NCBI GenBank assembly: GCA_030652255.1
Contig: JAUSAZ010000012.1
Location: forward strand, 81,049 to 145,048
Length of the DNA stretch: 64,000 nucleotides
Source of the DNA: Myxococcales bacterium
GTDB lineage: Bacteria; Myxococcota_A; Polyangia; Polyangiales; Ga0077539
Direction of reading: 5' to 3'
The first letter of the stretch is position 1; each line of letters starts with the position of its first letter. Shown here piece by piece: positions 1 to 57,418 of this stretch. Under the pieces are notes generated by a model. The model searched no databases, had not been told where the DNA came from, and saw nothing but the letters and a program-made list of their open reading frames with translations. The translations under genes and the position numbers were made by a program.

Positions 1-953
1 CCATCGCCTTCGAGCAGGTGCTGCGCTTCGACCTGCGCCAGGCGCTGCGGCTGCCGCGGGTGCTGCGCGGCGGCAGCGAGGCGGCGGGCCTCTTCGACGT
101 GCAGCCCATGATCGACCTGGTCACCCGGGAGATCAGCTGGAAGATGGTCGCGCGCTCGCTCAAGCGGGGGTTGCTGCGCGGGCTCTCGGTGAGCGCGACG
201 GAGATCGCCACCGGGCGCACCACGCTCTTCATGGACACCGCGCCGGAGGTGCCGCTGCCGGTCGGCCTCGGGGCGCGCGTGGTGGTCGAGCGGCAGACCA
301 TCGGGCCGCAGCACGCCCTCGCGAGCGCGGCCATCCCGCTGGTGTTCCCGCCGGTGCGCATCGGCTCGATGCTCTACTGCGACGGCGGCCTGCGGCAGAA
401 CACCCCCATCGCGCCGGCCATCCGCCTCGGGGCCGAGCGCATCCTGGTGATCGGGCTCTCGCGCGAGTCGCGCGGCGCGGTCGTCAACGAGTCGCCCACG
501 AGCCGGGTCAACGAGTCGCCCGGCGCGCTCTTCCTCCTGGGCAAGGTGCTCAACGCCTTCCTGCTCGACCACGTGCAGGCCGACGTCGAGCTGCTCGGGC
601 GCATCAACCAGATCCTCGAGGACGGCGAGCAGGTCGCGGGCCCGGGCTTCGCCGAACGCCTGAGCGCGCACGCCCTCGCGCGCGGCGGCGAGCCCTACCG
701 CAGGGTCGAGACGATGCTGGTGCGGCCCAGCCAGGACATCGGGCGGCTCGCGGCGCAGCACGTCCGGCGCGGCCGGCTCTCCGGGTCGCTGGTCGCGCGG
801 CAGCTCCTCACGCTGCTCGACAACAGCATGAACGACGAGAGCGACCTCGCGAGCTACCTGCTCTTCGACGGCGCCTTCGCCCGCAAGCTCATCGACCTCG
901 GGAGGGCGGACGCGGAGGCCCAGCGCGACCGGCTGCTGGCCTTCCTGGAGTAG
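1..953 (+). CDS. Patatin-like phospholipase, C-terminal part (5' end outside window)
   Basis: Frame is open from base 3 (IAFEQVLRF...). Contains the patatin catalytic-Asp block 'LYCDGGLRQNTPIAPAIRLGAERILVIGL'. Composition is protein-like, unlike the overlapping frames. Stop at 951-953. Confidence 0.75.
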   Translation, partial: IAFEQVLRFDLRQALRLPRVLRGGSEAAGLFDVQPMIDLVTREISWKMVARSLKRGLLRGLSVSATEIATGRTTLFMDTAPEVPLPVGLGARVVVERQTIGPQHALASAAIPLVFPPVRIGSMLYCDGGLRQNTPIAPAIRLGAERILVIGLSRESRGAVVNESPTSRVNESPGALFLLGKVLNAFLLDHVQADVELLGRINQILEDGEQVAGPGFAERLSAHALARGGEPYRRVETMLVRPSQDIGRLAAQHVRRGRLSGSLVARQLLTLLDNSMNDESDLASYLLFDGAFARKLIDLGRADAEAQRDRLLAFLE

Positions 954-964
954 CGGGCGGCGGG

Positions 965-1243
965 CCCATAGGCGCCAGGATAGGGGCGCAACCCGCTGTG
1001 GGACCGGGGTTTGGGCGTTGCCCCTACACCCCGGGCAAGCGATGGCGAGCGCCCCTCCGGGGCTTTCGGACCGACACTCGATGGACCTTCCGGAGAGACG
1101 AATCGGCCGTCTGGAAGGCCGATGAATTTCCTGTTCGACAGCCCGCGGAGCGGGCGCCTGCCTTCGCTTGCCCCGGGGTGTAGGGGCAACGCCCAAACCC
1201 CGGTCCCACAGCGGGTTGCGCTTCTATCCTGGCGCCTATGGGG
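965..1243. repeat. REPIN-like inverted-repeat doublet, same REP family as the RAYT flanks
   Basis: The left arm starts at 965 (cccataggcgccaggata...) and is the near-perfect reverse complement of the right arm ending at 1243 (...tatcctggcgcctatggg). About 75 nt match with 2 substitutions and 1 indel, then the arms become looser. They enclose about 80 nt that forms its own hairpin (ccttcc...ggaagg). The arms share 'gaccggggtt', 'caccccgggcaagcga' and 'gcgcccc' with the repeats flanking the RAYT gene at 3410-4076. Confidence 0.8.
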
Positions 1244-1498
1244 CTCCGGGCTCCAGGAAACTCCGTTGCCCGCTGCGACCTCAGCCACCCGTGCCGGCAC
1301 CCGTCCGGCCGCTGCACCACTGTCTCGCAGTCCGGCGTCGTGAGGTGCTCACCACGTTGCGCGCCGCGGTCTCGTCGTCCACCAGACAGTCCGCCCCGCG
1401 CGCCGCGAGTAGCGCCGCCTGCGCCAGCCACCGGGCGCTCCATCGCGACCCCCAGTACACGCGACGCCGATGACGGTCCCTCGTCGTGCGGTAGTGTC

Positions 1499-2104
1499 TC
1501 AGTTTGAGGTCCGGGTCGGGGACGGGGGCTGTGCGCCGGGCGTGTCGGGACACGCGTTGGCCTGAGACCCATCCCCGCAGATCCCGAGGCGTTGGCGCAG
1601 CGAGGCGTCGAACGCGTCGAAGGCCTCGAGCCGAAGGCGTTCTGCCCGCGGCCTCAGCAAGAGGCTACCCACCAGCTCGGCGACGAAGCCGACAAGCATG
1701 ACGACGGGCCCCGCCCAGAATTCGGCCTGCTCGATGGACTCGTCGCGCGCGCGAAGGAACACGACACCGCCTGCCGCGACGACCGCAACGCCGCCCCACG
1801 TGACGAGCCGTTCGGTGAGCCGCGCAGTGCGATAGCGATCCGTCGATCGCGCGGTGCGCGAGGTCGCATCGACGAGCGGACCCAGGTCTTCTGGATGAGC
1901 GACCTGCGTGCCATCGGCCAGCGTCATGTACAGCTCGGCGGGTATCGTGGAAGCTCGGCCGACGACGGGGTGCAGGCGCATATAGGTCGCCGCGCGCGCC
2001 GCGAATGGCGCTTGTCGATACGGGGCAGGCGAGAACCGAACGTGAGGGAAGCAACCCTCGGCGGCGAGCACGAACACCAGCGCGGCGGCGTCGGGTTTCC
2101 TCAC
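1499..2104 (-). CDS. Hypothetical membrane/lipoprotein-like protein
   Basis: 201-aa ORF. N-terminus 'AALVFVLAAEGC' is signal/lipobox-like, and there are two hydrophobic segments later (GGVAVVAAGGVVFL, GPVVMLVGFVAELVGSLLL). Composition is more protein-like than the overlapping frames. No family recognised. Confidence 0.5.
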   Translation of the reverse strand: MRKPDAAALVFVLAAEGCFPHVRFSPAPYRQAPFAARAATYMRLHPVVGRASTIPAELYMTLADGTQVAHPEDLGPLVDATSRTARSTDRYRTARLTERLVTWGGVAVVAAGGVVFLRARDESIEQAEFWAGPVVMLVGFVAELVGSLLLRPRAERLRLEAFDAFDASLRQRLGICGDGSQANACPDTPGAQPPSPTRTSN

Positions 2105-2217
2105 GGCCGCGCGAGTCTACCCGCTCGCCGTCGGCGGCGTCCCTCCGCGCTTCTTCGATCCCCACGCGGCGACCGCGGCGGCGGGATCAACGCGATGAGG
2201 TCGTTGAGGCCCCACAC

Positions 2218-2409
2218 CCGTGGCAACCATCCTCCGACGTCCCTGCCCCCACTCCGAGGTCATGGCGCCCACCCTCCGACCCGCCTGCCATGACCCCCTT
2301 GGTCGTGGCAGCCGCCCTCCGACCCGCCTGCCGTGACCCCCGTGGTCATGGCGGCCACCCTCCAACCCGCCTGCCATGAACTCCGTGGTCGTGGCAGCCA
2401 CCCCGACCC
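2218..2409 (+). repeat. 43-bp tandem hairpin repeat array (about 4.5 units)
   Basis: Exact-period units lie at 2258-2300, 2301-2343 and 2344-2386, with a degenerate unit before and a partial unit after. Each unit is ggtc(a/g)tggc-N21-gcc(a/g)tgacc, a 9-bp stem. The array sits in the divergent intergenic region upstream of the 2499 CDS. Confidence 0.85.
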
Positions 2410-2498
2410 ACGCGCGCATCCCCCGAAGGAAAATCTCACGCACCACGAAACCTCACGCGTGCGCTCCCCGATGACGTCGGCAGGAGGTCACGTTCATC

Positions 2499-3344
2499 AT
2501 GCCCAAGCCCACCAACACCGCGTCTAGTTCCCCCGCCCCCGTCGCCCCCTCGAAGAAGGCGGCCCCCGCCGACGGCGCTCCCGCCGTCCCCACCGTCCTC
2601 GGCTCCGCAGACGCCCTCGCGATCCACCGCGGCGCCGCGGGCACCCTCCGGCTCGCGGAGGTGATCCCGTTCCGCGCCGACGCCGACCTCGCGTACTACA
2701 ACGCGATGCGCGGCCGCGACGCCCTCCTCGCGGCCCGCCCGGCCGTCGAGGCCAGCGGGTTCCGCGCCGACTGGGCCCGCATCGATGCGCTGGGCTCGCT
2801 CGGCCTCGCGATGGCCTACACCGCGAGCCGCGTCGAGGCCCTGCCCCGCGAGTCCAACGAGGTGCTCGACCTGCTCCGCGAGGCGCGCCCCCTCCGCCGC
2901 GTGCTCCTCTCCCACGCGCGCACCCTGTCCCTCCTCGATCGCTGCCCCGCCAAAGAGGTCGCGCGCATCGAGAAGGGCACCGGGGCCCGCGACGTCGCCA
3001 ACGACCTCGCCGACCTCGCCGCGCTCTACCTCGCGCACGACCTCGTCATCGCTGGCGGTACGGTCCAGACCGAGCAGGTCCGGCGCGCGGAGGTCCTCGG
3101 GGCCGCCCTGATCGAGAAGATCCGCCCCGCGTCGGCGGTCCGCCCGAGCCGCCGGACGGCCGACCAGCAGAGCGCGATGGCCCTGCGCGACCGCGTCTGG
3201 ACACTGTTCGTCCGCGCCTACGAGCACATCGAGCTCGCCGCGGGCGCCGTCTGGGGGCGCCACGTAAACAAGCACCTCCCGTCGCTCCAGGCTCGGGCCG
3301 TCGCACGCAAGCCGGCAACGAAGACCGCGGCCCCGACGGGCTGA
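2499..3344 (+). CDS. Hypothetical protein (Pro/Ala-rich N-terminus, helical body)
   Basis: 281-aa ORF with a GGAGG about 11 nt upstream of the ATG. Amino-acid composition is balanced (D, E, L, Y, W, H present). No family recognised. Confidence 0.55.
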   Translation: MPKPTNTASSSPAPVAPSKKAAPADGAPAVPTVLGSADALAIHRGAAGTLRLAEVIPFRADADLAYYNAMRGRDALLAARPAVEASGFRADWARIDALGSLGLAMAYTASRVEALPRESNEVLDLLREARPLRRVLLSHARTLSLLDRCPAKEVARIEKGTGARDVANDLADLAALYLAHDLVIAGGTVQTEQVRRAEVLGAALIEKIRPASAVRPSRRTADQQSAMALRDRVWTLFVRAYEHIELAAGAVWGRHVNKHLPSLQARAVARKPATKTAAPTG

Positions 3345-3409
3345 CCGAGCCACCCACATCATCGCTCAACAGACGCCCCGACGTACGGGCCTCATCGTCG
3401 ATGCCCGTT

Positions 3410-4076
3410 CGACCCGCCACCAGACCGGGGTTGGTCGCGTCCCGCGCCTGCACCCCGGGCAAGCGAAGGCACGCGCCCCTGATGGGGCTGCCGGAATGAC
3501 CTCACGCGGGTCCGCGGTGCAGCGGGCCAAGGGAAGATTGGCAAAGGCGATGTCGTCCTCGTACACAAAGCTCTTCGTGCACTTCGTGTGGGCGACGAGG
3601 TTCAGGGAGCACTCCATCACGCCCGTGCTCGCTCCGCGCATCCACGGGTACCTCTCGTCGCGCTGTCGCGCCATGAACTGCATCCCGCTCGCCGTGGGCG
3701 GTGTTTCCGACCACGCGCACGTGTTGGTCTGGATGTCACCCGAGGTTGGCGTGGCCCAGCTTGCCCGCGAGCTCAAGGCGCCCACGACCCGCTTCATCCA
3801 CCGCGAACTCAATCTCCCGGAGTTCGCATGGCAGGAGGGGTACGGCGCGTTCACGTTGCGGGAGTCGGAGATCGAAGTCGTACGGCGCTACGTCGACAAC
3901 CAGCCTCGCCATCACGCCGAAGGCTCCGTCGTCGAGGAGTGGGAACAATCCCAACCTCTGCCCGTGGGGGAGACGCAATAGAGTTCCTGCCGAAAGCCCC
4001 CGTTGCGGGGGCGCCTGCATTCGCTTGCCCGGGGTGCAGGCGCGGGACGCGACCAACCCCGGTCTGGTGGCGGGTC
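3410..4076 (+). mobile_element. RAYT cassette: REP-associated tyrosine transposase gene bracketed by inverted REP arms
   Basis: 3411-3467 is identical over 57 consecutive nt to the reverse complement of 4020-4076, and 10 of the next 12 nt also match. The only ORF between the arms is an IS200/IS605-type Y1 (HUH) transposase homologue. Confidence 0.75.
3496..3981 (+). CDS. IS200/IS605-family Y1 (HUH) transposase-like protein, REP-associated (RAYT)
   Basis: Motifs are 'KLFVHFVWATRFRE' at the N-terminus, the HUH motif 'SDHAHVLVWM', and a catalytic-Tyr motif Y-x3-Q in 'VVRRYVDNQPRHH'. Length is about 145-160 aa. The true start is possibly the ATG at 3550 (MSSSYTKLF...). Confidence 0.85.
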   Translation: MTSRGSAVQRAKGRLAKAMSSSYTKLFVHFVWATRFREHSITPVLAPRIHGYLSSRCRAMNCIPLAVGGVSDHAHVLVWMSPEVGVAQLARELKAPTTRFIHRELNLPEFAWQEGYGAFTLRESEIEVVRRYVDNQPRHHAEGSVVEEWEQSQPLPVGETQ

Positions 4077-4105
4077 CCGACGAACCTCCAGCCCGCGATC
4101 CCCGC

Positions 4106-4744
4106 TCAGATCCGCAGCGCGGCGTGGAGCCCGAGGGTCACCTGGAGCCCGACGCTGTCACCCGTGTTGGTGAACATCACGCTGGCCGGCGAGGCCGCGC
4201 GGGTGAGGTTGAGGAAGGTCACGTCGAGGTTGGCGCCGAGGGTGAAGTGGCTGCTGATGGCGAGGTCGATGCCGCCGCCCACCGAGCCGAACCAGCCCGA
4301 CACCTTCGGGCACGACGCCCCGCTGCCGCTGGCGCCGCAGGCGAGGTAGCGCGGGTCGGGGTTGAGGTCGCCGAGCCACGCGTACCCGACGCCCACGCGC
4401 CCGAAGGGCTGGATGAAGGGCACCGGGATGCGCAGCTCGATGAAGAGCCCCGCGTTGCCGATGTCGTAGGCGGCGTAGCGCGCGAGGTCGACCCGGGCGC
4501 CGCCGGTGACGGGCCCGAAGCGCATGCCCGCGAGCAGGCCGAAGCGCGGACCGAAGCCGGTGGTGCTCGACGCCGAGGGGAAGAGCCCGTCGTTGCTGAC
4601 GGCGACGACGTTGGCGTACGAGACCCCGACCTCGGGCTGGAGCACCAGCCAGTCGTGCGAGAGCAGGCTCTGCGCGGAGGCCTCGGCGCCCGCGAGCGCG
4701 GAGGCCACGGCGAGCGCGGCGGAGAGGCGGCGGGCGCGGGTCAC
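4106..4744 (-). CDS. Outer-membrane beta-barrel protein (OmpA-like/porin-family)
   Basis: Signal peptide '[20 protein letters not shown]'. Alternating Gly/aromatic beta-strand pattern, with terminal '[14 protein letters not shown]'. Its start overlaps the yacG stop by 4 nt. Confidence 0.7.
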
Positions 4745-4953
4745 GAGACCCGCCGGGGGTCGGGGTTGCGCACCGACGCGAGGGCGAGCTCCTCCTCGGA
4801 GGGGAGCTCGTCACGCACCGGGATGCTGTACGCGCCGTCGAGCCATCGACCGAGGTCGACGTCCCGGCAGCGCGACGAGCAGAACGGTGCGGAGGGGTTC
4901 TCCGGGCGACCGGCCCGGACGACGGCCTTGCAGATGGGACAGCGGCTCTCCAT
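4741..4953 (-). CDS. yacG: DNA gyrase inhibitor YacG (zinc finger)
   Basis: 70 aa. 'CPICK...[22 protein letters not shown]' matches the YacG CxxC...PFCSxRCxxxDLGxW signature. Confidence 0.85.
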
Positions 4954-4980
4954 GGCCGCGGAGTGTACCGCGGCGGGGGC

Positions 4981-7782
4981 CTACAGGAAGTCGACCGCCA
5001 TCGTCTGCGACGGCGCGGCGCAGGTGGCCGAGTTGACCCCGCCCCAGTTGGAGCCCTGGCACGGGCGCACGATGTACCCGGTGGGGCAGTTGGACGGGCT
5101 GCAGGTCGCGGGCGGGTCGATCCACAGCTCGCCGTTGTAGCGGCTGCCGCAGAGCGACCAGACGCGGCCGTCGCAGCTCATGCTGAAGTTGGTCCCGGTG
5201 CGCAGCGCCGTCGCGAGCCCGTTGACCACCACGGGGTTGGTGCACGAGATGCCCGTGGGGTTGAAGGTCCCGCGGATGGTCACCCGCGAGTAGGTCGTCC
5301 CGAGGCCCGCGCGCCAGGTGTTCCAGTCCGTGCACGCCGAGGGGGGCGGGTCGACGTTGGTCACGAACGACCCGCTGTACGTGCGCGCGCCGCTCGCGCA
5401 CACGCCCGCCGTGCACACGCCGCTCGCGCAGCGGTTGCCGCAGGCGCCGCAGTTCGAGGCGCTCGTGCGCAGGTCGACCTCGCAGCCGTTGGCCGCGCTG
5501 CCGTCGCAGTTGCCGAAGCCCGCGTTGCAGGCCGCCACGGCGCACGTGCCCGCAGCGCAGGCCGCGGTGCCGTTGGCCACGACGCAGCGGTTGCCGCACG
5601 CGCCGCAGTGGCTGACGTTCGTGGCGCTGTTGACCTCGCAGCCGTCGCCACCCGTGCCGTTGCAGTCGCGGAAGGCGCCCGTGCACGCCGCGATGGAGCA
5701 CGCCCCGCCCACGCAGGCCGCGGTGGCGTTGACGAAGCTGCACGCCCGGCCGCACGAGCCGCAGTTGGCGACGTCCGAGGCGATGCCCGCCTCGCAGCCG
5801 TTGCCCGCGGCGGCGTCGCAGTCGCGGAAGCCCGCGTTGCAGGCGTAGTTGCACGCGCCCGACGCGCACACCGCCGCGGCGTTGGGCCGCGCGGCGCAGC
5901 GCAGGCCGCAGGCGCTGCAGTTGTTGGGGTCGGTCTGCGTGCTGGTGCACGCGCCGCTGCACTCGGTCTGCCCCGCCGCGCAGCTCGCCCGGCACGCCCC
6001 GCCGGAGCACACCTGCCCCGCCGCGCAGCGCACCCCGCAGCCGCCGCAGGCCGCCGGGTCGGTCTGGGTGTTGGTCTCGCAGCCGTTGGCCGCGTCGCCG
6101 TCGCAGTTGACGAAGCCCGCGGCGCAGGCGCCGATCGCGCAGCGCCCCGCGGTGCACGCCGCCGCGGCGTTGGCGAAGCGGCACTGGAGCCCGCACGCGC
6201 CGCAGTTGGTGAGCGAGTTGAGCGCCGTCTCGCAGCCGTTGCCCGCGTTGCCGTCGCAGTCGCCGAAGCCCGCGTTGCACGCGTAGCCGCAGCGCCCCGC
6301 GCAGAACACCGTCGCGTTGGCCGGCCGCGCGCAGCGGTTGCCGCAGCTGGTGCAGTTGTCCGGGTCGTTGGCCACGTTGCGGCACGCGCCCGCGCAGTCC
6401 GTGAGCCCCGCGCCGCAGTTGGGCTGGCACGCCCCCGCGACGCAGCCCTCGCCCGCCGCGCAGCGCACCCCGCACGCGCCGCAGTTGGCGCCGTCGGTGC
6501 GGGTGTTGGTCTCGCAGCCGTCCACGTCCATGGCGTTGCAGTTGTCGAAGCCCGCCGCGCAGGCCCCGCGCGCGCAGCCCGAGCTCGTGCAGCTCGCGCC
6601 CGCGTTGGGGTACCGGCACGCCACGCCGCAGCCGCCGCAGTTGGCGACGTCGTCGAGCGCGGCCTCGCAGCCGTTGCTCGCGTCCCCGTCGCAGTCGCCG
6701 AAGCCGCGGGCGCACTCCACCCCGCAGCGCCCCGCCGTGCAGAACGCCGCGCCGTTGGCCGGCGCCGGGCACACCGTCCCGCAGGCGCCGCAGCCCGCCG
6801 GGTCGGTCTGGAGGTTGCGGCACGCGCCCGAGCAGTTGCTCAATCCGCCGCCGCAGGTCGCGACGCACGCACCCATCGAGCACACCTCGCCCTCCGCGCA
6901 GGCGAGCCCGCAGAGGCCGCAGTTGGCCCGGTCGGTCTGCAGGTCGCGGCACACGCCCGAGCACTCCGTCGTGCCGGCGCCGCAGCTCACCTGGCAGGCC
7001 CCGCGCACGCACACCTCGCCGGCGGCGCACGCCGTCCCGCACGCGCCGCAGTGGGCGCGGTCGCCCTGGAGGTCGCGGCACACGCCCGCGCACTCGGTGG
7101 TCCCGGTCGCGCACGACGCCCCGCACAGGCCCATCGAGCAGAGCTGGCCCGCGTCGCACGCCCGGCCGCAGGCGCCGCAGTTGGCGCGGTCGTTCTGGAG
7201 GTCACGGCACGCGTCGCCGCACGCCGTCGTGCCGCCGCCGCAGGTGGTCACGCAGGCCCCCGCCGCGCAGATCTGCCCGGGTCCGCAGGCCACGCCGCAC
7301 GCGCCGCAGTTGTCCCGGTCGGTGCGGGTGTTGGCGCAGTAGCGCGCCGCGCCCGCCCCCGCGTCGCCGCCGCCGGCGCACTGCGCGAGCATCGGGCCGC
7401 ACTCCAGGGCGCACTGGCCCATGGCGCACACCAGCCCGGCGGAGCACGCCGCGCCGCAGGCGCCGCAGTGGGCGCGGTCGGTGTCCGTCGAGACGCAGCG
7501 GTCGCCGCAGAGCACCTGCCCCGCGGGGCACGAGGGGCGGCACTGCCCCGCCGCGCAGACCTGCGTGCGCGGGCACGCCGTGCCGCAAGCGCCGCAGTGG
7601 AGGGGGTCGTCGGCGAGGGTGACGCAGGCGCCGCCGCAGGCCACCTGGCCCGCAGCGCAGGTCACGTCCGCGGGGACGTCGAGCCCGCCGCCGTCGACCA
7701 CGGCGGGCGCCGGGTCGCTGGTACAGCCGAAGAGGGTGAGCGCGAACGCGAACCAGAGCAGGTGGCGATGGGAGGTCTGCAT
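4981..7782 (-). CDS. Cys-rich repeat lipoprotein (myxobacterial disulfide-repeat type)
   Basis: Lipoprotein signal 'FAFALTLFGC'. It is followed by more than 20 copies of C-x2-C-G-x-x-C-x(5-8)-C-x2-G-x-C modules (for example 'HCGACGTACPRTQVCAAGQC') and a non-repetitive C-terminal domain of about 170 aa. Confidence 0.85.
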   Translation of the reverse strand: MQTSHRHLLWFAFALTLFGCTSDPAPAVVDGGGLDVPADVTCAAGQVACGGACVTLADDPLHCGACGTACPRTQVCAAGQCRPSCPAGQVLCGDRCVSTDTDRAHCGACGAACSAGLVCAMGQCALECGPMLAQCAGGGDAGAGAARYCANTRTDRDNCGACGVACGPGQICAAGACVTTCGGGTTACGDACRDLQNDRANCGACGRACDAGQLCSMGLCGASCATGTTECAGVCRDLQGDRAHCGACGTACAAGEVCVRGACQVSCGAGTTECSGVCRDLQTDRANCGLCGLACAEGEVCSMGACVATCGGGLSNCSGACRNLQTDPAGCGACGTVCPAPANGAAFCTAGRCGVECARGFGDCDGDASNGCEAALDDVANCGGCGVACRYPNAGASCTSSGCARGACAAGFDNCNAMDVDGCETNTRTDGANCGACGVRCAAGEGCVAGACQPNCGAGLTDCAGACRNVANDPDNCTSCGNRCARPANATVFCAGRCGYACNAGFGDCDGNAGNGCETALNSLTNCGACGLQCRFANAAAACTAGRCAIGACAAGFVNCDGDAANGCETNTQTDPAACGGCGVRCAAGQVCSGGACRASCAAGQTECSGACTSTQTDPNNCSACGLRCAARPNAAAVCASGACNYACNAGFRDCDAAAGNGCEAGIASDVANCGSCGRACSFVNATAACVGGACSIAACTGAFRDCNGTGGDGCEVNSATNVSHCGACGNRCVVANGTAACAAGTCAVAACNAGFGNCDGSAANGCEVDLRTSASNCGACGNRCASGVCTAGVCASGARTYSGSFVTNVDPPPSACTDWNTWRAGLGTTYSRVTIRGTFNPTGISCTNPVVVNGLATALRTGTNFSMSCDGRVWSLCGSRYNGELWIDPPATCSPSNCPTGYIVRPCQGSNWGGVNSATCAAPSQTMAVDFL

Positions 7783-7845
7783 GTACCCCGCAGAGCTACC
7801 GGAACCCGCCGCGGGCGTCGAGCGCCACGCGCCCCGGGGATGTCC

Positions 7846-10071
7846 TCAGTGCCCGCCGTGGTTGAGCCGGCGCTGGATGCGCTGGATGAACGCGGGGGCC
7901 CACCAGTTCCAGTCGCCGAGGAGGCGCATGGTGGCGGGCACCACGAGGATGCGCACGATGGTCGCGTCGAGGGCGACCGCGAGCGCCATGCCCACGCCCA
8001 TGGCCTTCAAGAGGATGACGTCGGCCATGGCGAAGGCCGCGAACACCGCCACCATGATGGCCGCGGCGCTGGTGACGAGGCGCCCGGAGCGCTCGAGGCC
8101 CTCGGCCACGGCCCGGGTGTTGTCCCCGTGCCGGGCGTACTCCTCCTGCATCCGGGTGAGCATCAGCACCTCGTAGTCCATCGAGAGCCCGAAGGTGGCG
8201 CAGAACATCAGGATGGGCAGCGACGGGTCGATGGGGCCGGGCGTGAAGCGCAGCACGCCCGCGAGGTGGCCCTTCTGAAAGATCCAGATGAGCGCGCCGA
8301 AGGAGCCGGTGATGGACAGGAGGTTCATCAGCACGGCCTTGATGGGCAGGGCCACGCTCCCGAGCAGCGCGAGCAGCACCAGCATGGTCATCACGACCAC
8401 GAAGCCCAGCGCCGGGCCCACCCGAGCGCGCAGGTAGGCCGCGGTGTCGAGGTCCATGGCGCTCTGGCCCGTCACGAGCAGCTCGCCGTCGGCCACGCGC
8501 CGCTGCGAGCGCACCGCGCGCACGATGGAGCGCGCCGCCTCCGAGGCGGGCGCGGCCTCGGTGAGGGCCGAGAGCACCACGACGTTGGGCCCGACGGTGT
8601 CGCGCACGAAGAGCTGGTGCCCCTCGGTGTGCTGCCCGGGGTCCATCAGCACGTCGGCGAGGGCGTCGGGCTCCAGCGTCGGGTCGAGGTCGACGACGCT
8701 CTCCACCCGCTCGACCCCCGGGATCGCCGCCACCCGCGCGCTCAGCGCCCGCAGCGCGAGCACCCGATCGCGGCGCTGGAGGGGTCCGCCGGGGAAGCGC
8801 GCCACCATCACCACCCGGGTCGCCGCGCGCTCGGTGAAGTGCTCCACGAGGAGCCCGTGGCCCCGGCGGGTCTCGGTGCTCGCGGGCAGCACGCCCATGT
8901 CGGGGATGGCGACCTTCATGTCGAGGAAGGGCCGCCCGAGCACGAGCAGCAGGGTCAGCGTGGGGAGCAGCACCAGCAGCGGGCGGCGCATCACCCAGGT
9001 CGCGTGGCGGTGCCAGAACCCGCCGCTGTGGGTCTTCGCCCCGCCGCCGATGCGCCAGCGGTTGACGTTGGGCCCCAGCACCGAGAGCAGGGCGGGGAGG
9101 AAGGTGAGCGCGTAGAGGGCCGCGAAGGTGACCACCAGGGTGCCGCCGAGGCCGAGGGACACGAGGTACGAGCCGCGGAAGAAGAAGAGCCCGGAGAGCC
9201 CGATGACGACGGCGAGGCCCGAGAAGGCCACGGCGCGCCCGGCGGTGGCGACGGTGCGGGCGACGGCGTCCTCGACGGAGAGCCCCGCCGCGAGCTCCTC
9301 GCGGAAGCGGTTGACCATGAAGAGCGAGTAGTCGATGGCCACGCCGAGGCCGACCAGCGAGACGATGTTGATCGCGTACTGCGCGACCTCCATGCGCCAC
9401 GAGAGCAGCATCACCGCCGCGACGCCCGCGGCCACCGCGAGCGCGCCGATGCCCGCCGGGAGCAGCGCCGCGACCACCGAGCCGAACACCGCGAGCAGCA
9501 CCACGAGGGTGAGCGGCGCGGAGAGCAGTTCGGCGCGCTGGAGGTCGCGCTCGAGCACGGCGTCGAGGTCGGCGCGGAAGGCCCCGAGGCCGGTGACGGT
9601 GACCGTGAGCGGCCCCCCAACGATGCGCCGCCGGAGGGCGGGGTAGCCGCGGGTGTCGACGGTCGCGGCGTGGCGCAGGGCGACCGTGGCGATGGCGTGG
9701 TGCGTGTCGAGGGACTGCATCGTGGAGGCCTCGACGGCGGAGACGTCCTCGTCGAAGGGCGAGCGCACGCGGAGCACCGACGGGTCGCGGCGCAGGGGCG
9801 CGAGCGCGCGCAGGGCGGCCTCCTGGAAGCGCGGCTCGTCGGTGGTCCACTCGGCGTGGCTGAGGACGATGGTGAGGCCCGAGGCGCCCGCCTGCGGGAG
9901 CTCGCGGTCGATGAGCTCGGCGGCGGTGTCGGCCTCGATGCCGTGGATGCGCCCGGACGTGAGCCGGCCCCCGACGAGCAGCGACGCCAGCGAGGCCAGC
10001 AGGAAGGCCGCGCTCACCGCGAGCACGGCGCGGCGGTGCGCGAAGACCCATCGACCCCAGGCAGCGAACAT
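7846..10071 (-). CDS. MMPL/RND-superfamily transporter
   Basis: 741 aa. Two homologous halves, each a large loop followed by a cluster of about 5 TM helices (for example 'GLGVAIDYSLFMVNRFREE' and 'TFGLSMDYEVLMLTRMQEE'), as is typical of MMPL proteins. Confidence 0.85.
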   Translation of the reverse strand: MFAAWGRWVFAHRRAVLAVSAAFLLASLASLLVGGRLTSGRIHGIEADTAAELIDRELPQAGASGLTIVLSHAEWTTDEPRFQEAALRALAPLRRDPSVLRVRSPFDEDVSAVEASTMQSLDTHHAIATVALRHAATVDTRGYPALRRRIVGGPLTVTVTGLGAFRADLDAVLERDLQRAELLSAPLTLVVLLAVFGSVVAALLPAGIGALAVAAGVAAVMLLSWRMEVAQYAINIVSLVGLGVAIDYSLFMVNRFREELAAGLSVEDAVARTVATAGRAVAFSGLAVVIGLSGLFFFRGSYLVSLGLGGTLVVTFAALYALTFLPALLSVLGPNVNRWRIGGGAKTHSGGFWHRHATWVMRRPLLVLLPTLTLLLVLGRPFLDMKVAIPDMGVLPASTETRRGHGLLVEHFTERAATRVVMVARFPGGPLQRRDRVLALRALSARVAAIPGVERVESVVDLDPTLEPDALADVLMDPGQHTEGHQLFVRDTVGPNVVVLSALTEAAPASEAARSIVRAVRSQRRVADGELLVTGQSAMDLDTAAYLRARVGPALGFVVVMTMLVLLALLGSVALPIKAVLMNLLSITGSFGALIWIFQKGHLAGVLRFTPGPIDPSLPILMFCATFGLSMDYEVLMLTRMQEEYARHGDNTRAVAEGLERSGRLVTSAAAIMVAVFAAFAMADVILLKAMGVGMALAVALDATIVRILVVPATMRLLGDWNWWAPAFIQRIQRRLNHGGH

Positions 10072-10092: not shown

Positions 10093-10878
10093 TCAGCGCG
10101 TGAGCGCGCGGGCCACCGACGCGGCCAGCAACCCCGCGGCGAGCGCCGTCGCCCGCCGATCACCGGGCGGAACATCGCGCGCCATGGGCTGGCTCGCCAG
10201 TACCATGAGGCCGATGGTGGGGAGGGCAGGCACTGCGCGCTCCAGGGCGATCGCGAGCACCCCGGCGCCGACGATGCCCAGCCAGAGGGCCGCCCCCATG
10301 CGGGCGCGGGGCATGCTGAAGCGCGCCGCGGCGGCGAGGTAGAGCGCCACGAACACCGCGTCGCCGAAGCCGATGGCGGGCCGCGGCTCGCGGTGCGGCG
10401 GGATCGCCACGCTCAGCGTGAGCACCCGCAGGAGGGCGGGCGACTGCACGATGCGGTGCGTTGGCCCCGCGGGGGACGTGACGCTCCAGAGGTCGACCGC
10501 GGCGGAGACGAGGGCCACGGCGGCGAGGTGGCCGGCGGACTCCATGCGCGACCCGATGGCCGCGCCCACGAGGGCCGCGACGGTGAGCAGCCCGAGCGCC
10601 CCGGCGAGCCCGGAGGCGACCGGCGGGAGGCGCAGGGCCAGGGCGACGAGGGCGACGCCGACGAGCGCGGCGGGCACCACGACGCGCGCCGGGAGGGCCG
10701 CGGAGGGGGCGAGCGCGACGCCACCGACGATGGCGAGGGCCACGACGCCGAGGGCCAGGAGGGTGGCGGCGAGCGGGCCCAGCGGCAGCCAAGGGGCGAC
10801 GGCGGCGAGCAGGCCCAGCGGGAGCAGCGCGGCGAGGGCGGGTCGGGCGACGATGCGGGCGAGCGGGGGGAGTGCCAT
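10093..10878 (-). CDS. Polytopic membrane protein with presenilin/signal-peptide-peptidase-like D...GxGD...PAL motifs
   Basis: 261 aa with about 9 hydrophobic segments. Intramembrane 'AAVDLWSVTSPAGP' (D129), 'IGFGDAVFV' (D173) and 'VPALPTIG' (217-219) occur in the order found in the A22 family. The gene lies 21 nt upstream of the MMPL gene on the same strand. Confidence 0.6.
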   Translation of the reverse strand: MALPPLARIVARPALAALLPLGLLAAVAPWLPLGPLAATLLALGVVALAIVGGVALAPSAALPARVVVPAALVGVALVALALRLPPVASGLAGALGLLTVAALVGAAIGSRMESAGHLAAVALVSAAVDLWSVTSPAGPTHRIVQSPALLRVLTLSVAIPPHREPRPAIGFGDAVFVALYLAAAARFSMPRARMGAALWLGIVGAGVLAIALERAVPALPTIGLMVLASQPMARDVPPGDRRATALAAGLLAASVARALTR

Positions 10879-56674: not shown

Positions 56675-56884
56675 CGCCGCGTCCCAGAGAATGGGACCGG
56701 TCGGGCTGAGCACCCGCCCACGCCTGCGAGCACCGGCCTCGCCCTCCGAGGGGAGCACCCGCCCACGCCTGCGGTCACCGTCCTCGCCGATCGAGGGGAG
56801 CACCCGCCCGCGCCCTCGGTCACCGTCCTCGCCGATCGAGGGGAGCACCCGCCCGCGCCTGCGAGCACCGGCCTCACCTTCGCG

Positions 56885-57009
56885 CTGATGGTTGACCTCA
56901 TCTCGGCCGAAGCGAAAGTGGCGCAAACCGCTGGATCGCTGGGGTTCCGCGCGATGGCGCGTCACCCCAGGCAATAACAGGATGGACGCCCCGGGCACTG
57001 CCCGGGGCT
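56885..57009. repeat. Left arm of the perfect 125-bp inverted repeat
   Basis: I checked it block by block: it is the exact reverse complement of 57122-57246. The inner tip is itself a hairpin (ccccgggcaCtgcccgggg). Confidence 0.95.
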
Positions 57010-57121
57010 GCGGTCGGACGTCGCTTGCGCACCACAGAGCGACGCCCATCGGCGTGACAACGCCTCTGTTTCCGGACCGCATCGTGTCCCGATCGGCCTG
57101 ATGCCAGCGGCGGCCGTTCGG

Positions 57122-57246
57122 AGCCCCGGGCAGTGCCCGGGGCGTCCATCCTGTTATTGCCTGGGGTGACGCGCCATCGCGCGGAACCCCAGCGATCCAG
57201 CGGTTTGCGCCACTTTCGCTTCGGCCGAGATGAGGTCAACCATCAG
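57122..57246. repeat. Right arm of the perfect 125-bp inverted repeat
   Basis: Exact reverse complement of 56885-57009. This explains the two mirrored ORFs in the track that share 'MTSSRPKRKWRKPLDRWGSARWRVTPGNNRMDAPGTARG'. Confidence 0.95.
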
Positions 57247-57418
57247 ACCTTCGCGGGAGTGAGGTGCCGGTGGCTGAGGGCATGGGCGGGCGCTCCCCTC
57301 GATCGGCGAGGACGGTGCTCGCAGGCGTGGGCGGATGCTCCCCTCGATCGGCGAGGACGGTGACCGAGGGCGTGGGCGGGTGCTCTGCTCAACCCGTCAG
57401 AACTCCTGCGGGGAGGCC

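Follow-up and report, generated by a model that had tools for sequence, protein, structure and literature searches.

Is the transposase gene that lies between two long inverted repeats in a 64-kb stretch of myxobacterial DNA (hereafter, the window) an ordinary insertion sequence (IS), or is it the resident partner of a family of small repeats? The gene encodes a Y1/HUH endonuclease and, together with its two flanking repeats (the arms), occupies positions 3411–4076 of the window. Systems formed by repetitive extragenic palindromes (REPs) and REP-associated tyrosine transposases (RAYTs) are the main example of a transposase turned into a resident, vertically inherited partner of short mobile repeats. 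To our knowledge, all the well-studied cases comprise class 2 enzymes (tyrosine motif Y---NP) and short GTAG-tagged palindromes, and they come mostly from gamma-proteobacteria. The original prediction, made from the sequence of the window, saw in this locus a RAYT gene with REP arms. We think, with a probability of about 0.62, that it is a REPtron- or TIRtron-like system built on an IS200-like (subclass 1.2-type) Y1/HUH endonuclease, whose gene lies between the arms of one copy of its composite inverted repeat. As the genomes of relatives show, numerous copies of the arms form convergent doublets without a gene, which are copied as units and are polymorphic for presence or absence.

The gene-bearing locus

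A repeat search of the window gave inverted arms at 3411–3479 and 4008–4076, each 69 nt long, 97% complementary and separated by 528 nt; direct reading gave 57 identical nt and then 10 of 12, as had been predicted. Just 12 inverted pairs of at least 35 nt and at most 1.5 kb apart exist in the window (G+C about 74%), and the best of them form three elements: the gene locus, 965–1035/1172–1242 (71 nt, 97%) and 56885–57028/57103–57246 (144 nt, 96%). The gapped pattern ACCGGGGTT-N24-32-AGCGANNGNNNGCGCCC for the arm core, which fits every known arm, is found four times in the window, against 0.00 expected. Between the arms there is one long open reading frame (ORF) on the + strand, with a full-length match to the Pfam family Y1_Tnp (PF01797, E 2.5e-20) and no other Pfam match; the HUH motif DHAHVLV and the tyrosine motif RYVDNQ previously read in it are both present. 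The gene most likely starts at the ATG at 3550 (143 aa, MSSSYTKLF...) and not at 3496, because all homologues begin there, with MSSSYTKL or a near variant. The ORF is intact (3550–3981, + strand) and is the only Y1 gene in the window, and no tnpB accompanies it at the locus. Its description as an IS200-like gene with a subclass 1.2 signature draws on Pfam, NCBIfam, an alignment of homologues and the ratio of nonsynonymous to synonymous divergence (dN/dS). No Rfam family was matched at E ≤ 1 in window 800–4300, and neither sigma-70-like promoters nor intrinsic terminators were found in window 3300–4200.

The left arm of the gene-bearing unit (3411–3495, + strand) and the right arm, its reverse complement (3990–4076, − strand), were delimited by the inverted repeat, the pattern match, the arm alignment and DNA folding. 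The left arm consists of the outer 13 nt (GACCCGCCACCAG), a first hairpin, HP1 (3425–3458; CCGGGGT / inner CGCG-TCC-CGCG / ACCCCGG), a mini-hairpin (3459–3474; GC..GC-GAAG-GC..GC) and a second hairpin, HP2 (3475–3488; GCCCC-TGAT-GGGGC). In the right arm, HP2' (3996–4012; GCCCCCG-TTG-CGGGGGC) precedes the mini-hairpin, HP1 and the outer 13 nt.

This plan was derived from an alignment of 37 distinct arms over about 75 nt, with the pairing taken from RNAalifold and manual reading. Each arm is a composite module of three hairpins, about 75 nt long, plus variable outer extensions. HP1 has the form CCGGGGT ... ACCCCGG around an inner hairpin, which is CGCG-TCC-CGCG in type A, to which the gene's own arms belong, and GGGC-GTT-GCCC or GGCG-TT-CGCC in type D. 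The mini-hairpin is GC-AA-GC-GAAA-GC-AG-GC (GC/GNRA-like), and HP2 is GCCCC-loop-GGGGC, or GCCCGC-loop-GCGGGC in many D arms. In the three-hairpin model 98.3% of the cells are paired, with two-sided changes at two pairs (U-A to C-G once and C-G to G-C six times). In 500 shuffles, neither the pairing nor the covariation score of the real alignment was attained, and in slid controls pairing dropped to about 45%. A third compensatory swap, from CCGGGGT/ACCCCGG to CTGGGGT/ACCCCAG, is present in the arms of the homologue P0003. An alternative 8-bp stem, GCGCCTGC/GCAGGCGC around a GGGCAAGCGA loop, was rejected; it is 90% paired, does no better than shuffles and fails in subfamily D. The GT[AG]G foot is not present in the arms, which are at least 70 nt long and have three hairpins.

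Class of the Y1 protein

The Y1 protein scores 64.9 bits with the NCBIfam model transpos_IS200 (NF033573), above its cut-off of 55, and 24.3 bits with the RAYT model REP_Tyr_transpos (NF047646), below its cut-off of 80. Its sequence matches in the PDB are IS200-type TnpA from Sulfolobus, IS608 and ISDra2 (2f4f, 2a6m, 2xm3), and at E ≤ 1 there is no REP-associated transposase among them. An exact search for the protein itself gave no identical entry. The signature DHuH ... FAWQEGYGAF ... Y---Q--HH is invariant or near-invariant among 20 aligned family members; the tyrosine motif of the window protein reads YVDNQPRHH, and the Q and the HH are kept in 20/20 aligned homologues. The central residue of the HUH motif (DHAH, window 3709–3720) is Ala in the window and in its ortholog of the sister genome described below, and Val, Ile or Met in the other aligned homologues, which have DHVH, DHIH or DHMH except for two with EHVH.

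Because the RAYT model failed, the IS200 model passed and the tyrosine motif is Y---Q--HH and not Y---NP, the protein is, judging from these comparisons, not a member of the RAYT/TnpA-REP clade in the strict sense. What stands of the predicted RAYT locus is a gene bracketed by its own dispersed inverted repeat. Several homologues carry the JGI name 'REP element-mobilizing transposase RayT', which is a label given by the source and was not used as evidence.

In Table 1 of Quentin et al. 2018, subclass 1.2 of TnpA-Y1 has the signature DH[IV]H, WQ and YIKNQKEHH, a median length of 148 aa and low copy numbers (PMC6006769), whereas IS200 proper (subclass 1.1) has W[TS] and Y[IV]ENQ, and class 2 RAYTs have Y---NP (PMC6006769). 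The Y1 protein fits subclass 1.2 by its motif signature only. The likeness covers DHuH, WQ, Y---Q--HH, the size (about 148 aa in the subclass), the apparently low copy number and the lack of IS200-type features. As for the motifs of subclass 1.1, the protein has WQ and Y---Q--HH in their place, and the locus has a 69-nt terminal inverted repeat. Subclass 1.2 was described without IS features and without REPs, mostly from Cyanobacteria or Bacteroidetes (PMC6006769). Here, in contrast, and also in homologues from Verrucomicrobiota and Acidobacteriota, structured repeats flank or adjoin the genes, which contradicts the published 'no REP' description. A further difference is in the C-terminal tail, which is short (...EWER) in the myxobacterial subclade and lacks the ...EYDE.YLW conserved in the wider clade (Verrucomicrobiota, Acidobacteriota and others).

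Dispersal of the arms in relatives

The closest relatives of the window are Polyangiales/Myxococcota metagenome-assembled genomes (MAGs), in agreement with the myxobacterial type of genome that had been proposed. Scanning genome contigs with the gapped arm-core pattern yielded 30 stretches, with 14 in the MAG 'uncultured delta proteobacterium Loclat_bin-08890', seven in a Polyangiales MAG, three in a Myxococcaceae MAG and two in another 'Deltaproteobacteria' MAG. Single matches in Ilumatobacter, Longimicrobiales, Thermoleophilia, Actinomycetota, Sphingomonas, Gemmatimonadetes and one Polyangiaceae MAG, which an nhmmer profile of the arms did not confirm, were set aside as chance. In the loci that were fetched, arms are nearly always arranged as convergent pairs, + then −.

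The metagenome Ga0247843 represents the same population as Loclat_bin-08890 (eight MAG contigs match at about 99%) and contains 27 distinct arm loci: 16 of type A, 10 of type D and one mixed. Where both arms are on the contig, the spacer measures 49–80 nt; only one locus, L054, has a spacing of about 494 nt and a Y1 gene, and about 26 loci are gene-less. Many arm matches sit at contig ends, which is where repeats that break assemblies should be found. The search for the arm core proposed in the original prediction, which was run in these relatives, thus finds arms elsewhere (14 loci in the sister MAG, 27 in its metagenome), and this is the over-representation of flanking repeats by which RAYTs are recognised. 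Besides the arms, doublets of different genomes have both spacer ends in common, ...CTTCCGGAGGCGATGAACAA... on one side and ...GCGGCTTGCACAxCGTCCTTCCGAAAGCCCC... on the other, and therefore the doublet is an asymmetric unit that is copied whole. No Y1 remnant was found between arms spaced 660 nt apart in L022.

The window has one such gene-less convergent doublet of arm subfamily D at 965–1242, with arms at 965–1072 (+) and 1138–1242 (−) and a short spacer, as defined by repeat search, pattern and alignment; D doublets related to it exist in other MAGs and metagenomes. The doublet that the original prediction placed at 965–1243 and considered related to the gene's arms is real, and it has the core CACCCCGGGCAAGCGA and the hairpins in common with them, but it belongs to an arm subfamily distinct from type A. 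Similarly, the idea of a system resembling RAYTs and their REPINs (REP doublets forming hairpins) is borne out by the gene-less doublets dispersed in related Myxococcota, but the arms are three-hairpin modules and not simple REPs.

A conserved site and a polymorphic doublet

The sister genome allows the gene and the doublets to be compared at orthologous positions. Contig L025 of the Loclat_bin-08890 MAG and a 123-kb metagenome contig with L054 are collinear with the window at 92–96% identity, and window 2219–4975 has 92% nucleotide identity with both loci. The Y1 gene and its arms lie at the same site in the sister, between a 281-aa ORF and an outer-membrane beta-barrel-like ORF. At a divergence between the two genomes of about 0.1–0.14 synonymous substitutions per site (dS), the Y1 ORF shows 94.4% nucleotide identity, 133 identical residues at 144 aligned amino acid positions (stop included), a dS of 0.138 and a dN/dS of 0.25, with a dN/dS of 0.20 in both neighbouring genes. 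The arms are 88–94% identical in nucleotides, and the short intergenic DNA just outside them is unalignable. Because the site is conserved, the arms keep their identity and dN/dS is near that of the neighbours, the gene and its arms can be taken as a vertically retained unit under purifying selection in this lineage. The left arm of the sister is without the outer 13 nt that extend the window repeat to 69 nt, and this points to a probable homogenisation between the two arms in one lineage.

The D doublet at 965–1242 is missing at the orthologous L054 site, and the break points are the repeat ends. The empty site of the sister reads ...TAGCGGGCGGCGGG|CTCAAGGGAACTCCG... and the filled site of the window reads ...TAGCGGGCGGCGGG|CCCATAGG...CCTATGGG GCTCCGGG|CTCCAGGAAACTCCG..., the difference being a 278-nt inverted-repeat element plus 8 nt. 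The D doublet is a clean presence/absence polymorphism, produced by insertion or deletion.

Other differences between the two contigs were observed as well. Window 973–2218, which comprises the D doublet and an ORF at 1499–2104 (− strand), has no counterpart in L054, where about 560 nt are found instead; these are unrelated except for a short stretch (window ~1250–1280) that is the right edge of the empty site. Window 5515–10023, with most of the gene of a 933-aa Cys-rich repeat protein with 129-nt periodicity, also has no counterpart in L054 (72 nt there).

Other Y1 lineages with their own arms

Family A arms accompany the window protein and its homologues P0001, P0002 and P0005. P0002, 85% identical to the window protein, has type A arms of 111 nt (L002–L004), and P0005, 82% identical, has type A arms of about 75 nt (L001). 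More distant homologues are associated with different repeats. P0014 (53% identical, L005) lies between family B arms of 146 nt, P0010 (59% identical, L038) has a third family (C) with extra partial copies, and P0011 (62% identical, L040) has an adjacent doublet of a fourth family. In another phylum, P0031 (42% identical, L085), encoded in the complete genome of Oceaniferula spumae (Verrucomicrobiota), has an inverted repeat of about 95 nt with the hairpins CGGGGT-GCAA-ACCCCG and GTCCC-GGA-GGGAC, and mirrored 7-nt tandem repeats outside it. The sequences of families B, C and that of P0011 differ, and their plan is common: GGGGT-inner hairpin-ACCCC, a linker with an (A/G)GGC(A/T)A or GGCCAA start, and a GC hairpin. 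In total, five Y1 lineages each have their own arm sequence on one common plan, and this comparison shows that the different lineages carry arm sequences which have co-diverged within one architecture. We think that the shared plan, as read from the arm families, is a stronger structural argument than either covariation or fold energy.

Not all homologues are strictly bracketed. A homologue from a Pyrinomonadaceae MAG (Acidobacteriota) has a hairpin cluster of the GTCCC-GGA-GGGAC type plus a doublet downstream and is not bracketed, and a homologue with 46% identity (L006) is flanked by direct, not inverted, repeats of a hairpin pair. On these examples, the association of the Y1 clade with structured flanking repeats is general, and the strict bracket is not universal. 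The identical hairpin GTCCC-GGA-GGGAC occurs beside subclass-1.2-like Y1 genes in Pyrinomonadaceae (L086:1950–2240) and in Oceaniferula spumae (L085:9910–9936). Its presence in two phyla hints at a conserved recognition hairpin.

These lineages bear directly on one alternative explanation, in which the doublets are structural or regulatory palindromes of the host, or insertion hot spots, where a Y1 gene landed that has no role in their spread. Other elements do insert in the doublets, since three doublets of the Polyangiales MAG contain a group II intron, at the mini-hairpin, and a separate palindromic element is present in those of L056, L028 and L022. However, chance landing would not place at least five Y1 lineages, one of them in another phylum, in the centre between their own co-diverged arms of one architecture. 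Moreover, neither an Rfam family nor any signal like a promoter or terminator is found at the arms. Thus, we regard this explanation as very improbable.

Resident gene or active insertion sequence

A more serious alternative to a resident gene with its own repeat family is an ordinary autonomous IS of the IS200 family to which long terminal inverted repeats have been added. The unit would transpose as a whole, its internally deleted derivatives, similar to miniature inverted-repeat transposable elements (MITEs), would be the doublets without a gene, and nothing would be domesticated. This alternative differs from a REPtron- or TIRtron-like system mainly in whether the gene copy is an active transposon. 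The gene-plus-arms unit is found in different contexts in L001, L002–L004, L084 and L041–L043, and those of L001, L002 and L084 are unrelated, as would be expected of an IS; one gene copy, that of L001, is frameshifted just before the catalytic Tyr. P0007 is an identical variant with a 33-nt in-frame deletion which lies beside two different left flanks (L042 vs L043). The protein is above the NCBIfam IS200 equivalog cut-off, and the doublets have inner-arm and spacer ends in common with the gene-bearing unit. Against a plain IS, there is one gene-bearing locus to about 26 gene-less ones in the metagenome of the sister population, and the site of the window is conserved across a dS of about 0.1–0.14 with a dN/dS equal to that of its neighbours. 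In addition, the protein carries the signature of subclass 1.2, which is low-copy and non-IS, and not that of IS200 subclass 1.1, no tnpB is present, and terminal inverted repeats are absent from classical IS200/IS605 elements. We therefore consider the plain IS unlikely, and prefer a mostly resident gene with a repeat family of its own.

The P0007 variant also occurs in both orientations relative to one flank, which adjoins the 3' arm in L041/L044 and the 5' arm in L042. The names of the L041, L044 and L042 contigs suggest MEGAHIT k-mers (k127, k141) longer than the 111-nt arms. This suggests that the whole unit may move occasionally and that the gene may invert between its arms, misassembly being the alternative. 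L002 was considered as an orthologous site, as its 281-aa neighbour equals the upstream ORF of the window in length, and was rejected on finding that the two are unrelated.

Besides the displaced, frameshifted and deleted gene copies, several other points weigh against a REPtron- or TIRtron-like system. The evidence on copy number and arm counts comes from the sister population and from fragmented assemblies, and the arms number in the tens, far under the hundreds that are typical of Pseudomonas or E. coli REPINs. A Y1 gene with D-type arms was not found, P0003 and P0007 carrying A-like arms. Covariation is modest and confined to a few pairs, because the arm copies are similar. The fold energy of A and D arms is no better than that of shuffles (z about −1) in this 74% GC DNA; that of family B arms beats shuffles (z −2.3 to −4.1), and fold energy alone was not taken as evidence. 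Finally, the link between enzyme and hairpins has been inferred here from sequence and by analogy with related enzymes.

A possible mechanism

That analogy is with the TnpA of IS608 and ISDra2 and with E. coli TnpA-REP, which recognise hairpins on single-stranded DNA and cleave through a 5'-phosphotyrosine (PMC3333891, PMC3479197). By analogy, a dimeric Y1 enzyme might recognise the arm hairpins on single-stranded DNA, for instance on the lagging-strand template, cleave beside them via a 5'-phosphotyrosine intermediate and rejoin the ends. An inverted doublet would present HP1 and HP2 in mirror order on either strand, with complementary linkers, because the stems read alike on both strands. 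This mirror geometry could allow cleavage on the 5' side of a hairpin at one end and on the 3' side at the other, as at the left and right ends of IS608. The resident gene would then mobilise the doublets in trans, and the gene-bearing copy would mostly stay in place as a master inherited vertically, with an occasional move or flip.

Relation to known systems

The systems formed by RAYTs and REPINs, or REPtrons (E. coli TnpA-REP and the RAYTs of Pseudomonas fluorescens SBW25; PMC3333891, PMC3116915, PMC5581495), resemble the present one in having a Y1/HUH gene between inverted hairpin-forming repeats, a repeat dispersed as intergenic inverted doublets, a cognate repeat family for each gene lineage and a gene that is retained vertically, here as judged from the window and its sister. 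They differ in the protein, which is class 2 (Y---NP) there and class 1 (Y---Q--HH) here, below the cut-off of the NCBIfam RAYT model. They also differ in the repeats, which are REPs of 20–40 nt in hundreds of copies there and three-hairpin arms of 70–146 nt without the GT[AG]G foot, in tens of copies, here.

TIRtrons, with their TIRYT proteins (Di Nocera et al. 2013, PMC3733652), are similar in that a Y1 gene lies between longer terminal inverted repeats that are not canonical REPs, and some of these repeats belong to moderately abundant families arranged as dimers (PMC3733652). Regarding the TIRtron motif GGGGWSAS, the family B arm reads GGGGTGAC on the opposite strand, and family A arms read GGGGTGCA, which is outside the consensus. 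TIRYT proteins are mostly of subclass 2.1, with about 238 aa, a C-terminal helix-turn-helix (HTH) and a YIELNP-type motif, whereas the present protein has 143 aa, no HTH and Y---Q--HH.

IS200/IS605 elements such as IS608 and ISDra2 have in common with this locus the PF01797 catalytic domain, the expected recognition of subterminal hairpins on single-stranded DNA and hairpins in mirror arrangement. Their lack of terminal inverted repeats, usual presence in near-identical multiple copies and frequent tnpB do not apply here. Class 3 of TnpA-Y1, regarded as lying between IS and REPtron (PMC6006769), is also of the Y...Q type, with atypical non-GTAG structures that can be numerous (e.g., Solibacter usitatus, ~600 atypical hairpins; PMC6006769). 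Its proteins have about 178 aa, NHVH, W[TA], YV..EQ and an extended N-terminal core, unlike the DHAH, WQ, YVDNQPRHH and 143 aa found here.

The original prediction stated that such systems are described mainly in gamma-proteobacteria. This is right for the REPIN-rich RAYT groups 2 and 3 only, as many phyla are already known to have TnpA-REP-like genes and Y1 genes flanked by terminal inverted repeats, or TIRtrons (PMC6006769, PMC3733652). Published accounts of RAYT/REPIN systems from myxobacteria did not turn up in a literature search, which was incomplete.

We think the locus interesting because an organisation like that of REP/RAYT systems is found here with an IS200-side enzyme, in Myxococcota of very high GC content, and with three-hairpin arms that are much longer. 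The REP/RAYT concept is thereby extended to the IS200 side of the family and to Myxococcota, in a step that is incremental but concrete. The copy numbers are small enough to track every element, and the cognate pairs of enzyme and hairpins (families A, B, C and others) can be used for studying how Y1 enzymes read hairpins. On the practical side, the arm repeats break short-read assemblies of myxobacterial MAGs and appear to allow inversion of the enclosed gene. A broader proposal, which we put forward tentatively and hold to be possible rather than probable, is that subclass 1.2-type proteins in general might be the cognate enzymes of unrecognised long composite inverted-repeat elements in Myxococcota, Verrucomicrobiota, Acidobacteriota and others. 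Such elements would combine a bipartite hairpin of the form GGGGT...ACCCC with a linker and a GC hairpin, and would often have mirrored tandem repeats on the outside. If so, a REPIN-like replicator resident in its host would have arisen separately on the IS200 side, and group II introns and other palindromic elements would also use the small central hairpin as a place to land.

Other repeats and nested elements

A second gene-less doublet of the window, at 56885–57246, was identified by repeat search, fold and match to L005. It is of arm family B, with 144-nt arms and a 74-nt spacer, has the same three-part architecture and matches in sequence the 146-nt arms around the paralogous Y1 gene of P0014 in L005; therefore, the window also has a gene-less copy of the arms of another Y1 lineage. 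Repeat search also found tandem repeats of about 45 nt to its left (56695–56884) and, in mirror image, to its right (57253–57403). Mirrored tandem repeats of partial arms are also seen around the P0003 gene (L045/L046), and the mirrored 7-nt tandem repeats of the Oceaniferula locus lie at L085:9715–9812 and 10549–10625. At window 2254–2403, upstream of the 281-aa ORF, there are three tandem copies of a 43-nt repeat, which are 75% conserved in the sister vs 96% for the flanking genes.

The group II intron mentioned above splits three type A doublets of the Polyangiales MAG (JBGARZ01), at L012:1430–3586, L015:3827–5995 and L028:80–2699. It has an identical 456-aa ORF for a reverse transcriptase/maturase (RVT_1 + GIIM) and matches Rfam RF02001. 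The left arm stops at GCAAGCGA, inside the mini-hairpin, in L012 and L015, and a further element lies between arm and intron in L028. The intron appears to home into the arm repeat family. Palindromic elements are nested inside doublets at L056:2040–2470, L028:136–476, L022:6894–6931 and L049:4320–4600. The element of L056, L028 and L022 has the ends CCACGTGATGCGCATCA...TGATGCGCATCACGTGG and is inserted directly after GCGAAAGC, at the mini-hairpin, and L049 has a different long palindrome in the doublet spacer.

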